Of a stretch of DNA of 64,000 nt, positions 27,348-30,681 are shown in pieces. Under the pieces are notes generated by a model. That model ran no database searches and had not been told where the DNA came from. It saw only the letters and a program-made list of their open reading frames with translations. Source of the stretch: Candidatus Marinacidobacterium sp. (GTDB taxonomy: Bacteria > Acidobacteriota > Vicinamibacteria > Marinacidobacterales > Marinacidobacteraceae). A program made the translations under genes and the position numbers. Where the stretch lies: positions 3,328,001-3,392,000 of the forward strand of contig OZ242011.1 in NCBI GenBank assembly GCA_965204755.1. Reading direction: 5' to 3'. The number at the start of each line of letters is the position of its first letter. Position 1 is the first letter of the stretch.

Positions 27348-28418
27348 TCAGTCGGAGTCCTCGACGAACTGCTGAAGGAAGCCGCGGTGGAGGCGAGCCA
27401 CGCGTTCCACGAAGTCGTCCATGCGACCGGGGTCTTCGGGAAACGCGATTGCACCGATCGTCATTTCATGGCCCGACCTCGAACGGAAGTCGCGTTGCTG
27501 CAGGTCGCCGATCTCGTCCGCCAGTCGGCGAAAGTTGGGCTGGTGCTCTTTCCGTACTCGCTGGGGATCGCCGCCCAAGCGCATCAAACGCAGCGGCTTC
27601 CCGGCATCTATGCGCCAGAACAGTCCACGGTCACCCTCGAAGAACAAGAAGACATACTGTGTCCACGGGTTTCCGGAACTCGTGCCCTTCTTCACTCCGT
27701 TCCAGTGCCTCGGCTGCGGCCTTTCGGCGGGTACGAGTTTCTGGAGACGGAGCATGAACTCCCACTGGACATGGGCGTGCCCCATCTTCCAAGACTGGAG
27801 GGCTTCGGTGCGGTCGGTAACGATGCGGCGCAGGTTCTCCTCGTACTGTCGCAAGACTTCGTCGTTTCGTACGGCGTCCTGACCGTGGAGAAAGCGAAGA
27901 AAGTCGTCAGCCGTCACGATGGAGTAGTGATTCGCTTCGACATTCTCGCGCTCGTTGCTGTAGATGTAGCCGGTCTTCAGGTAGATCGGCTTGATGAAGT
28001 CTTCGGGTTTGCTGTCGGTCCTGACCGCATCCAGATACCGCGCCAGTTGGTTGCTGTGTGCTCCGGTGCCGGTCTTGTCCTCGATGAGGAAAGTGACCAT
28101 CTTGCCGTCGACTCTCGCTTGGAAGAAGACATCGATCTTGTCGCGGCGCCCTCGGGGGGCGTACTGCATCTCGAGACTCTCGACCGTGCCGATCTCGAAG
28201 TTTCCCGAGTGTCGAGCGGGCTCCCCGCTCCCGGGTGCGATTACGGGGACGGAGGACTCGTTCGGCTCGGCGCCGGCGCGAAACAGGAACCGCACGAAGT
28301 TCCGGCCGAACTTCTGGAGCGAGGCGGACGCATCCCGAGCGGATGCGTAGGCCACCAAGTAGCAGAGAAAGGCGTCTTGGGACAGTTCTTTCTTCGCGAA
28401 AGAGAAGATGTTGGGCAT
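27348..28418 (-). CDS. PD-(D/E)XK nuclease superfamily protein (PDDEXK_4-like)
   Basis: PNIF..A..ELSQDAF...L, E.Q...IDV, IEDKT, QL.RY, YLKTG. Lower GC than neighbours. Confidence 0.8.
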   Translation of the reverse strand: MPNIFSFAKKELSQDAFLCYLVAYASARDASASLQKFGRNFVRFLFRAGAEPNESSVPVIAPGSGEPARHSGNFEIGTVESLEMQYAPRGRRDKIDVFFQARVDGKMVTFLIEDKTGTGAHSNQLARYLDAVRTDSKPEDFIKPIYLKTGYIYSNERENVEANHYSIVTADDFLRFLHGQDAVRNDEVLRQYEENLRRIVTDRTEALQSWKMGHAHVQWEFMLRLQKLVPAERPQPRHWNGVKKGTSSGNPWTQYVFLFFEGDRGLFWRIDAGKPLRLMRLGGDPQRVRKEHQPNFRRLADEIGDLQQRDFRSRSGHEMTIGAIAFPEDPGRMDDFVERVARLHRGFLQQFVEDSD

Positions 28419-28699
28419 GTTGCGTCGACCTCAGCGACGGGAGCCGCGCCTGATCGCGCGGCTTCGGGTTCGGGGACTCGGGAGGCCGCCGCCGTTTCGG
28501 CAGCGACACATGAGCGCGCGGCGAGCGCGACCGTTCGGGTGCTCGTCGGGCGCGGGGCGAAGAACGGCGTCGTCCGCGGGGAATCGCTGCGGGACGCAGC
28601 GGGCGGGTAGCGCCGGGCGGCGCCGCGAGTTGAGCGGCCGCCGTTCGGTCGGCGCCGGAGTCAGGCGGACTCGGGCGCCGATCCAATCACATGGATTTC

Positions 28700-28714
28700 G
28701 GGGGGGGGGGGGGG
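28700..28714 (+). repeat. Homopolymer G15
   Basis: Fifteen consecutive G in the intergenic region. Confidence 0.9.
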
Positions 28715-28791: not shown

Positions 28792-29238
28792 GGAGCAAAG
28801 ACACAGGCTCCACCAAAGACACAGGCTCGGCGGTCGAAAAACACAGGCTGGAGACACAGGCTCCACGAAAGACACAGGTTCCGCGAAAGACACAGGTTCC
28901 GCGAAAGACACAGGCTCGGCTCCGCGAAGAACACAGGCTCCGCCGCGTCCGGCGGGGTCGGGGGATTCCGCGCGTGGTCGGTGTCGGTGCGGATCGAACC
29001 CCCCTTCCGTCCGCCGTACGGCCGGATCGACTGCCCGGCGCAGGCTCCCCGCGCCCGGATGCGCCCCTTCGGGCGCTGGAACTTATAAAATCAATAAATA
29101 CAAGGACTTAGGAGCGAAAGACACAGGCTCCCAGCCTAAAGACACAGGCTTGAGACACAGGCTTCCGACCAAAGACACAGGCTCGGCGGTCGAAAAACAC
29201 AGGCTAAAGACACAGGCTCCGCGAAAGACACAGGCTCC
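28792..29238 (+). repeat. Bipartite array of 15 co-oriented AAAGACACAGGCT-like boxes around an AT-rich core (iteron-like)
   Basis: ACACAGG cores at 28801, 28819, 28841, 28854, 28872, 28890, 28908, 28931 and 29121, 29142, 29155, 29175, 29197, 29210, 29228. AT-rich ACTTATAAAATCAATAAATACAAGGACTTA at 29081-29110. Confidence 0.93.
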
Positions 29239-29265
29239 CGCCGGAGCGCTTCTCGTCGCGGGGCG

Positions 29266-30681
29266 TCAGAAAGTCTCCACCTTCATCATGTTGGTGGCGC
29301 CGCTCAACTGGGTGGCGCCGCAGACGACGACCACGCGGTCGCCGGGGGCGACCAGGCGTTCCGACCGCAGCCGTTCGAGGGCGCCGCTCAGCATCGCGTC
29401 GGTGGAGCGGAAGCGGCGGTTGCGCATCGGGCGGACGCCGTAGCGGAGGGCGAGGCGGCGGAACACCCGGTCCGAAGTGGTGAAACCCAGGATGCCGCAG
29501 GGCGGGCGCATCCGGCTCACATGGCGCACGGTCGCGCCGGAGTCGGTGAACGCCACGATGTACGCCGCGTCGATCTCCGCCGCCGCTTCGCGCGCCGCCG
29601 CCGAGATGGCGTGCTCGATCCGGCTGCGGTCGATGTGCGCGTGGTGGTGTTCCTGTTCGCCGAAGTCGGCGTGCTGCTCGGTGAACGAGGCCAGCCGCTC
29701 GAGCGTGCGCACCGCTTCGATCGGGTACTTGCCGACCGAGGTCTCGCCGGAGAGCATCACCGCGTCGCTCCCGTCGAGGATGGCGTTCGCCACATCGGAC
29801 GCCTCGGCGCGCGTCGGCATGGGATGCGAAATCATCGAGTCGAGCATCTGGGTGGCGGTGATCGCGATCTTCCCCCGCGCGTTCGCCCGGCGGATCACAT
29901 GCTTCTGGACCACGGGCACGCGCTCGGAGGAGGTCTCCACCCCGAGGTCCCCGCGCGCCACCATGACCCCGTCGGACGCCTTGAGGATGTCCTCGAGGTT
30001 CTCGAGCGCCTCCGGCCGTTCGACTTTGGCGATGATCGGCCGGTCGGCCGCGCCGAGCCGGTCGAGCAGCGCGCGAACCTGCTTCACATCCTTCGACTTG
30101 CGGACGAAGGACACCGCGAGGAAGTCCACTCCGGCCGCCACCGCGGCCTTCAGGTCGGCGCGGTCCTTGACGGTGAGCGACCGCCCGGAGAGCGGGACGC
30201 CCGGCAGGTTGAGCCCCTTGCGCGACAGGAGCCGGCCGCCGACGACCACTTCGGTCTCCACATCGGTGTCGCCGCTGCTGACGACATGCAGCCGGAGCAG
30301 CCCGTCGTCGAGCAGGATCGCGTCGCCGGGCCGGACATCCCGCGCCAGGTGCGAGTAGGTCGTCGAGACCGCCTCCGCGCTCCCCTGCACCTTCCGGGTG
30401 GTCAGGACGAAGCGCGAGCCGGGGGTGAGTTCGACGCCGCCTTCGGGGACTTCCCCGGTGCGCATCTTGGGCCCGGCGAGGTCGGCGACGGTGGCGACCG
30501 CCCGGTCGTGCTGCTTCGCGGCGCGGCGGACCGCGCGGACCCGGGCGGCGAGGCTGCCGGCGGTTTCGTGCGCGCAGTTCAGGCGGGCGGCGTCCATTCC
30601 GGCTTCCACCAGCGCGGACACCTCCGCCGGCTTCACGGTGGCCGGGCCGAGCGTGGCGATGATCTTGGTGCGCCGGAGCAT
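29266..30681 (-). CDS. pyk: Pyruvate kinase
   Basis: RRTKIIATLGPA, DL.GPK.R, LDDG, KG.NLP, SFVR, AKVE, VMVARGDLGVE, ATQMLDSM, PTRAEASDVANA..DG.DAVMLSGET. Confidence 0.97.
   Translation of the reverse strand: MLRRTKIIATLGPATVKPAEVSALVEAGMDAARLNCAHETAGSLAARVRAVRRAAKQHDRAVATVADLAGPKMRTGEVPEGGVELTPGSRFVLTTRKVQGSAEAVSTTYSHLARDVRPGDAILLDDGLLRLHVVSSGDTDVETEVVVGGRLLSRKGLNLPGVPLSGRSLTVKDRADLKAAVAAGVDFLAVSFVRKSKDVKQVRALLDRLGAADRPIIAKVERPEALENLEDILKASDGVMVARGDLGVETSSERVPVVQKHVIRRANARGKIAITATQMLDSMISHPMPTRAEASDVANAILDGSDAVMLSGETSVGKYPIEAVRTLERLASFTEQHADFGEQEHHHAHIDRSRIEHAISAAAREAAAEIDAAYIVAFTDSGATVRHVSRMRPPCGILGFTTSDRVFRRLALRYGVRPMRNRRFRSTDAMLSGALERLRSERLVAPGDRVVVVCGATQLSGATNMMKVETF

Follow-up and report, generated by a model that had tools for sequence, protein, structure and literature searches.

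Paired direct-repeat arrays and a candidate winged-helix partner in a sponge-associated acidobacterium

Known paired-repeat systems and the present locus

Among described systems, the plasmid centromeres R1 parC/ParR, pBtoxis tubC/TubR and pNOB8 AspA are close to the element considered here: in them, too, two co-oriented clusters of short repeats adjoin the gene whose product binds them, which in the case of TubR and AspA is a winged-helix protein. Iteron origins (R6K gamma ori, P1/F rep with iteron sets on its flanks, SaPI ori) combine direct repeats of about 20 bp with an AT-rich segment and a site of the integration host factor (IHF) type. Our subject is an intergenic locus on a 64-kb stretch of the chromosome of Candidatus Marinacidobacterium sp. 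(contig OZ242011.1; the whole stretch is referred to as the window), where two arrays of ACACAGG-type boxes, at 28797-28939 and 29117-29236, are separated by a spacer and an AT-rich core. The host is a sponge-associated acidobacterium, and its genome is a single contig of 3.98 Mb that is 89% complete. From gene neighbourhood and the co-variation of boxes with proteins, we consider it probable that the window locus is a gene-less copy of the paired binding-site array of a winged-helix protein encoded at another locus, termed locus C, and that it acts as DNA.

The likeness to plasmid centromeres extends to the candidate protein. The binding proteins of the parC/tubC class have a ribbon-helix-helix or winged-helix fold, which the candidate fits according to a confident structure model (predicted local distance difference test, pLDDT, 92), and AspA-DNA complexes are among the weaker Foldseek matches of its domain model. 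The winged-helix gene lies beside the arrays of locus C, not beside the window locus. The present arrays differ from plasmid centromeres in that they are chromosomal, with one gene-linked locus and several gene-less copies per box type, and in that a spacer of ~180 bp takes the place of a promoter-sized gap. No partner NTPase gene was seen, and the protein is modelled with long helices at its N-terminus followed by a disordered linker, with up to 10 paralogues in one genome. The direct repeats of iteron origins are likewise matched here, and the AT-rich core and IHF-like motif may correspond to their AT-rich segment and IHF-type site. However, in contrast to such origins there are many loci per chromosome, no initiator family match was obtained, and the AT core is missing in a second type of box.

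On chromosomes, ParB-parS, RacA-ram, MatP-matS and Noc-NBS each employ a dedicated DNA-binding protein with specific sites on a chromosome-wide scale, and RacA joins its DNA-binding domain to a coiled coil. While the sites of these systems are single palindromes clustered near ori or ter, the present ones are paired direct-repeat arrays without positional bias, and there appear to be several orthogonal systems per genome. Another comparison is offered by the REP/BIME repeats with their RAYT proteins and by the RIB/RIP subclass, in which an IHF site lies between two REPs (compare PMC2817692 and PMC3733652). The resemblance lies in species-specific, gene-free repeats that are scattered over the genome, and in a presumed cognate protein gene flanked by repeats. 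Unlike REP/BIME, the present units are not palindromic hairpins, they are co-oriented rather than alternating, and they occur at 14 loci instead of hundreds; furthermore, the 89%-complete genome has no Y1_Tnp match, and the candidate protein has no catalytic domain. Accessible literature on Acidobacteria repeats, dispersed iteron-like arrays and sponge-symbiont Vicinamibacteria yielded no description of such arrays.

The locus and its sister arrays

The motif ACACAGGYT occurs 15 times in the window, always on the plus strand and always within 28801-29236, whereas the shuffle expectation is 0.17 and none of 100 shuffles attained 15. Array 1 (28797-28939) contains eight co-oriented boxes, at 28801-28939, with the consensus AAAGACACAGGCT and with periods of 18-23 bp plus one of 13 bp. 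Array 2 (29117-29236) contains seven, at 29121-29236, in the same orientation. Periods of 18 bp recur at 28872/28890/28908, 28801/28819 and 29210/29228, and a plus-strand block of 38 bp, consisting of two boxes and their linker, is present in identical copies at 28812-28849 and, inside array 2, at 29168-29205. The region between the arrays comprises a GC-rich, unique spacer (28940-29080), which was studied by genome search, RNA folding and comparison with a congener, and the plus-strand AT-rich core (29081-29110), which ends in an IHF-like 13-mer at 29098-29110. The GC content is 0.38 at 29080-29139, compared with 0.55-0.83 in the surrounding DNA. No inverted repeat was found within the boxes, and a domain scan out to ~4 kb from the locus revealed none of the rep, dnaA, par or recombinase type. 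Motif counts with shuffles, a re-reading of the sequence and the GC values thus bear out the description given in the original prediction, namely the 8 + 7 boxes on one strand, their 18-bp periods, the duplicated block, the AT-rich segment in GC-rich DNA and the absence of such genes nearby.

The prediction had also allowed for an assembly artefact. Pieces of the locus are present, with few differences, in the contigs of all four public runs compared with it, which come from four studies, and one 18-bp unit is missing in one of these runs. The array is therefore real, and its unit number is slightly variable.

The locus had been regarded as an orphan, which in the sense of unique is refuted by the finding of five loci with this box and layout. 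The 11-mer AGACACAGGCT occurs 45 times genome-wide, while the reversed control does not occur at all. ACACAGG forms five clusters of 5, 11, 12, 16 and 15 copies, each confined to a single strand, in addition to 37 scattered copies, for which a maximal-order Markov model predicts 43. Restriction-site avoidance was considered for this motif and rejected on account of these scattered counts and of CACAG being just mildly under-represented. Loci A-E, of which E is the window locus, have a common asymmetric order, consisting of an array, a GC-rich spacer, an AT-rich core of ~35 bp and a second array. A genome-wide tandem-repeat scan identified a second box, CTATACACAATTC, at nine further loci, each with two co-oriented arrays of 4-9 boxes around a spacer and without an AT core, so that the genome holds 14 paired arrays in total. 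The spacers measure 137-236 bp at all 14 loci and about 180 bp at the ACACAGG loci, and no copy of any of the 14 was found elsewhere in the genome. The idea that the spacers are captured foreign DNA gained no support from this comparison, in which no phage or plasmid sequences were included. The boxes are largely confined to these arrays, with 102 of 102 copies of TATACACAAT and 57 of 64 copies of A[AG]ACACAGG lying within them. For the second box, 54 of 84 spacings are 20-21 bp and 14 are 30-31 bp; for ACACAGG, 24 of 49 are 20-22 bp, 11 are 13 bp and 8 are 18-19 bp. The box spacing thus peaks near two helical turns.

In the congener, there are related arrays whose boxes end in GGG, together with ACACATG and ACACCTG variants, some in long arrays with a 33-bp period. 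Locus C alone among the five ACACAGG loci occupies the same position there, and the site of locus D corresponds to a gap of ~35 bp. When the non-coding DNA of locus C is compared between the two species, alignment is limited to the boxes, a CCGGAGC motif and AAATCAAnGAnTTA, and does not extend to the spacer. An alignment of the five loci and the congener's gene-linked locus over the AT core and the start of array 2 revealed invariant core columns and the same order of boxes and linkers, in which array 2 of the window locus agrees with its counterparts at loci A-D and at the congener's locus. These features indicate that the six loci are diverged copies of one element. The motif is indeed scattered over five loci, as the prediction had considered for a common repeat, but all five, like the congener, retain the AT core and its spacing from the next box, and the prediction's own refuting condition applies only in part. 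No ACAC array follows the pyruvate kinase gene, the neighbour of the window locus, in 25 other genomes of the family, two of which have a different array there.

Several of these observations would suit a minisatellite-like element, selfish or neutral, for which slippage, unequal exchange and ectopic recombination would be the means of invading gene-free gaps that tolerate it. Arrays next to the protein genes would then serve as operators of those genes, and the other copies would have no role. The unit number varies between populations, as the missing 18-bp unit attests, and blocks are duplicated within and between arrays. Just one locus in five is positionally common with the congener, the gap at the site of locus D and the lack of the array after pyruvate kinase in the 25 genomes fit the same picture, the box types are species-specific, and the genome contains many other tandem arrays. 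However, slippage alone is insufficient to explain a paired layout with a spacer of ~180 bp that recurs in three box families and three genera. The boxes are conserved while the linkers and spacers diverge, the position of the AT core is fixed, and the boxes are absent outside the arrays. We consider this explanation unlikely, although it retains an appreciable probability.

The presence or absence of such a locus between congeners as a unit of ~650 bp, and the homology of the six compared loci in their fine structure, would also be expected of a small non-autonomous mobile element, similar to a miniature inverted-repeat transposable element (MITE) or to REP/BIME, whose enzyme is encoded elsewhere and whose subterminal binding sites are the arrays. 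A 17-nt motif near the arrays (see below), which faces away from them in six of six exact copies, and the frequent vicinity of restriction-modification, toxin-antitoxin and other accessory genes could be read in the same way. Against this, the two arrays are repeated directly rather than in inverted form, neither terminal inverted repeats nor target duplications were observed, and the spacers, which such an element would be expected to carry along, are unrelated between copies. No Y1 (RAYT-type) transposase was found in the 89%-complete genome, and no transposase was seen beside the 14 loci. A mobile element is therefore quite improbable, and the suggestion that the locus is an element end falls with the lack of an inverted arrangement and of a transposase.

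Other repeats accompany the arrays or resemble them. The 17-nt motif, CCCCGCTTTCGTGGACG, has six exact copies, at chromosome positions 245998, 358270, 755722, 1207898, 2895836 and 2970739. All of them lie 21-310 bp outside a paired array and face away from it, in the direction of an adjacent gene such as those for SNF2 helicase, AAA_14-DUF4143 and Uma2; the motif may be a promoter, a leader or an element end. A 25-nt direct-repeat pair, GAGACACCnACTTTTrCGCA, at 358315, 1575814-1575856, 2970655-2970697 and 3119676-3119718, adjoins three arrays and once stands alone, and it recurs in the sister genus (genomes G018, G019 and G023). Downstream of pyruvate kinase, two sister-genus genomes (G027 and G021) carry 16-19 copies of a different box, CAGCGTGGAGTTC, in arrays placed between a tRNA gene and an apparent insertion-sequence end. 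Distant Acidobacteriota have gene-free heptamer or 21-bp tandem arrays after genes, composed of units similar to ACACAGG, for example (ACACAGG)n and (CCACAGG)n.

A candidate winged-helix protein family

An all-against-all comparison of the open reading frames (ORFs) around the 14 loci linked two gene-sized ORFs, one beside locus C and one beside a second-box locus; otherwise it yielded only two SNF2-type helicases and two AAA_14-DUF4143 ATPases. The linked ORFs share a C-terminal stretch of ~80 residues with 48% identity, and a tblastn search of the genome with this stretch retrieved three genes and no more (E 3e-51, 1e-21 and 1e-10, followed by a match at E 0.1). The locus-C paralogue (contig 1, ~1047266-1048330, outside the window) starts ~106 bp after array 2 of that ACACAGG locus, 2.3 Mb from the window locus. 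The second paralogue starts ~100 bp from an array of the second box type (TACACAAT), and the third ends ~80 bp short of a 2-kb array whose box is a third one, of the GGATCGA type, which is also arrayed at 0.34 and 2.78 Mb.

The third box, cGGATCGAsCCCC, forms very large arrays at chromosome 339974-341756, 2587848-2589887 and 2780725-2782400, all outside the window. One has ~116 copies with a period of 15-16 bp, while two 2-kb arrays show both a higher-order period and a spacing of 28-33 bp. The box also occurs singly in three of the ACACAGG spacers, those of loci A, B and E (in the window at 28990-29003 and 29024-29035). A tRNA remnant, which had been suspected in the window spacer because of a T-arm-like stretch, was rejected, as ARAGORN reported none and the stretch belongs to this box family.

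The three proteins have a common build, with a Gly/Arg-rich N-terminal region, a Pro/Ala-rich linker and the C-terminal domain. The model of the domain (pLDDT 92) adopts three helices and a wing and resembles winged-helix DNA binders, with Z scores of 8.4-10.9 and root-mean-square deviations of 1.1-4.1 A over 53-73 residues. The structural matches include the Z-alpha, MarR, ArsR and IclR families and the C-terminus of a Fic protein; the corresponding Foldseek E-values are weak (at least 0.05). In the full-length model, long N-terminal helices (pLDDT 50-67) are followed by a disordered linker.

In Pfam, sub-threshold matches to Fic-like_C and HTH_20 were the only ones obtained. Those to Fic-like_C reach 20.7 and 14.9 bits for two paralogues (E 4e-4 and 0.025), below the gathering cut-off of 27 bits, and the locus-C protein has none. 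The Fic-like_C winged helix, as found in Fic-family and AlbA_2-HATPase_c_4 proteins, is nevertheless the nearest sequence family of the domain, and the Fic structure scores Z 9.3. In contrast to the carriers of Fic-like_C, the present proteins have no Fic, AlbA_2 or ATPase domain, and the searches made disclosed no link of Fic-like_C to repeat arrays. NCBIfam, PADLOC, PHROGs and a protein atlas gave nothing useful. Among 5.8 billion clustered proteins, there are 17 full-length homologues, none of which bears a name or a Pfam domain. A search with just the domain gave 2454 representatives at E <= 1e-3, and of 30 that were scanned, 19 match Fic-like_C and 7 match HATPase_c_4. A search of metagenome contigs with the domain produced one weak locus only. 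The domain profile matches 21 of 27 other genomes of the bacterial family, with 1-10 copies each, and none of 27 genomes of two sister families. Judging from these searches, the putative protein family is restricted to this bacterial family.

The association between these genes and repeat arrays was analyzed at 30 gene loci, including two of this genome's own, over +-1.5 kb, with 28 pyruvate-kinase loci as controls. A 9-mer repeated at least four times was detected at 26 of the 30 gene loci and 11 of the 28 controls, and one repeated at least six times at 21 and 4, respectively. The four positive controls at the higher threshold include the window locus itself and two other arrays. Furthermore, the box follows the domain: close relatives share a box, and differing domain clusters have differing boxes, for example AGCCATGGTCAA in seven genomes, TAGTGACAGGAGCTC in two, TATCGCACCCAGTTC in three, and AAAGACACAGGCT, or its form ending in GGG, in this genome and the congener. 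For the second paralogue of the congener, the neighbouring array, ~1.3 kb away, has 30 copies of the box GGATCGACC, and the second box type and its paralogue are both confined to this genome among the 55 of the order that were searched. The CCATGGTCAA box has a single gene-linked locus in each of five other genomes, and four of these five have further paired loci with a spacing of 20-21 bp and box-to-box gaps of ~160-300 bp. The pairing recurs for paralogues whose domains are just 38-54% identical, and, with the box sequence tracking the winged-helix sequence, it recurs across three genera of the family. The proposal of a cis-acting assembly site whose protein is encoded elsewhere is thus supported in general, with a candidate 2.3 Mb away; the specific options attached to it, an origin, a partition site or an element end, are not.

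The AT-rich core, the flanking genes and a possible role

The IHF consensus is WATCAANNNNTTR, with an AT-rich tract upstream. The window core contains ATACAAGGACTTA at 29098-29110, which fits seven of the nine fixed positions. The conserved TTA of this 13-mer ends 6 nt before the first box of array 2, and both the motif and the distance are found at all five ACACAGG loci, the distance being 5 nt in the congener. The strict consensus occurs six times genome-wide, one of these occurrences being in the locus C core and oriented like the arrays, and exact matches are also present in two congener cores. The genome encodes two IHF-like proteins, which score below the NCBIfam cut-offs, and one HU-like protein.

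The iteron-like direct repeats of ~20 bp, the AT-rich island and the IHF-like site, together with two repeat clusters laid out as in R1 parC, pBtoxis tubC and SaPI origins, could suggest a replication origin, a plasmid-type centromere or the relic of an integrated replicon. However, there are 14 such loci on one chromosome, and their orientation is unrelated to the replichores, since just 9 of 14 are co-oriented with replication and there is thus no orientation signal. The window locus, at 3.36 Mb, is 1.5 Mb from dnaA (1.82 Mb) and coincides with neither the skew minimum (~2.1-2.9 Mb) nor the maximum (3.91 Mb). The 89%-complete genome has no Rep3_N match, other Rep families not having been searched, and the candidate protein has no Rep domain. 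No Rep gene and no ParA-, ParM- or TubZ-type NTPase gene was seen among the scanned neighbours of the arrays or the winged-helix genes, and the AT core, present at the window locus and its four sister loci, is absent at the nine second-box loci of the same layout. We regard this explanation as the most improbable of all, and the origin and partition options of the original prediction are not upheld.

The core could instead be a promoter. The boxes are purine-rich on one strand, their spacing is variable, and the AT core lies just before array 2, as might be expected of a small-RNA gene whose repeated single-stranded motifs soak up an RNA-binding protein in the manner of CsrB/RsmZ. The tRNA genes of this genome are preceded by TAGAAT or TATAAT, and the core of locus C has TAGAAT, the commonest of these -10 forms. 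Neither the other loci nor the gene-linked locus of the congener retain this hexamer, though, and a promoter scan found no sigma-70-type promoter in the window locus. No core of this kind precedes array 1, and the second box type lacks one altogether. The Rfam matches at the locus all stay far below the gathering scores (best E 1.3), ARAGORN found no tRNA or tmRNA there, and the predicted fold of the spacer is not more stable than those of shuffled sequences (z +0.13 and -1.0). Unlike CsrB/RsmZ-type sponge RNAs, the boxes lack GGA, and the candidate partner has a predicted DNA-binding fold. An RNA gene is thus very improbable.

Both neighbours of the window locus are minus-strand genes, so the locus sits after the pyruvate kinase gene (29266-30681) and ahead of the PD-(D/E)XK-type nuclease gene (27348-28418). 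A plus-strand ORF of 431 residues that overlaps the nuclease gene has no Pfam match. The minus strand of 28849-29247 has five terminator-like sites where 0.9 would be expected, an excess due to the U-rich run in which every box terminates when read in reverse. The first of these sites directly follows the stop of the pyruvate kinase gene, whose transcription it could terminate. A run of 15 G at 28700-28714, between array 1 and the nuclease gene start at 28418, differs in length between public runs (+3 in one, -4 in another) and looks like a slippage-prone tract ahead of the nuclease gene. In the nuclease gene region (27348-28450), the GC content falls to 0.48-0.62, compared with ~0.72 in the genome, and two ORFs with an XRE-type helix-turn-helix (HTH) lie upstream of the gene. 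The congener has copies of a HigA-like antitoxin (HTH) gene and a small upstream ORF after pyruvate kinase instead, and the position is a variable accessory slot.

Over the 14 loci, every arrangement relative to the neighbours is encountered (after, before and between genes), which argues against a cis-acting mRNA element. By our count, 8 of 14 loci adjoin restriction-modification or other accessory genes, including a DUF1156 methylase, a type I restriction subunit, Dcm-EcoRII, XRE regulators with the PD-(D/E)XK nuclease, SNF2 helicases, AAA_14-DUF4143 ATPases and Uma2 nucleases. In relatives, the winged-helix genes adjoin MmeI-type enzymes (three loci) and toxin-antitoxin genes, and a trypsin-like peptidase gene lies just downstream in 7 of 27 loci.

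Our preferred reading remains that the window locus is a gene-less copy of the array bound by the locus-C protein. Several observations weigh against it. The link between gene and array consists of neighbourhood and co-variation among related genomes, so the pairing counts are not independent of each other, and the 9-mer test also catches unrelated repeats, as the 11 of 28 controls at four copies demonstrate. The spacing of ACACAGG is irregular (13, 18 and 20-22 bp), and a single helical register is thus not kept. The IHF-like motif in the window fits just seven of nine fixed positions, the second box type has no AT core, and the model of the N-terminal region is of low confidence. Moreover, the congener has ACACATG and ACACCTG box variants yet only two paralogues, and other tandem arrays in this genome were left unmatched to any paralogue. 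The origin, the small-RNA gene and the REP element are all poorly supported, and we take the window locus to be neither an origin nor an RNA gene.

In the mechanism that we propose, the C-terminal winged helix would read one box, and many copies of the protein would load side by side on each array, as the spacing peak at 20-22 bp suggests. The long N-terminal helices and the disordered linker would join the copies and thereby hold the two arrays together across the ~180-bp spacer, while at loci with the ACACAGG box type an IHF-like protein would help by introducing a bend in the AT core. Where the array adjoins the protein gene, the complex would set the level of the protein itself. At the gene-less loci, often beside restriction-modification or accessory genes, it would provide a docking, bridging or insulating platform; titration is another candidate role.

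On the larger scale, we tentatively suggest that Candidatus Marinacidobacteraceae-like sponge symbionts have an undescribed chromosomal address system, in which several orthogonal proteins, each combining a winged helix, a coiled coil and a disordered linker, gather their own paired arrays into looped or clustered hubs that mark, insulate or silence accessory and defence islands. The window locus would be one such hub site. This broader proposal is possible, although we would not call it probable.

Whatever the role of the arrays, repeats combined with an AT-rich core and an IHF-like site need not mean an origin, and the pairing, if real, would explain chromosomal iteron-like arrays that resemble misplaced plasmid origins. 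It would also define a new protein family, whose N-terminal part belongs to no Pfam, NCBIfam, PADLOC or PHROG family, and whose DNA targets can be read from genomes, as boxes of 13-15 bp that change together with the recognition domain. The family would then represent a natural set of orthogonal protein-site pairs, and a testable case of how bacteria rich in defence islands organise or regulate them.

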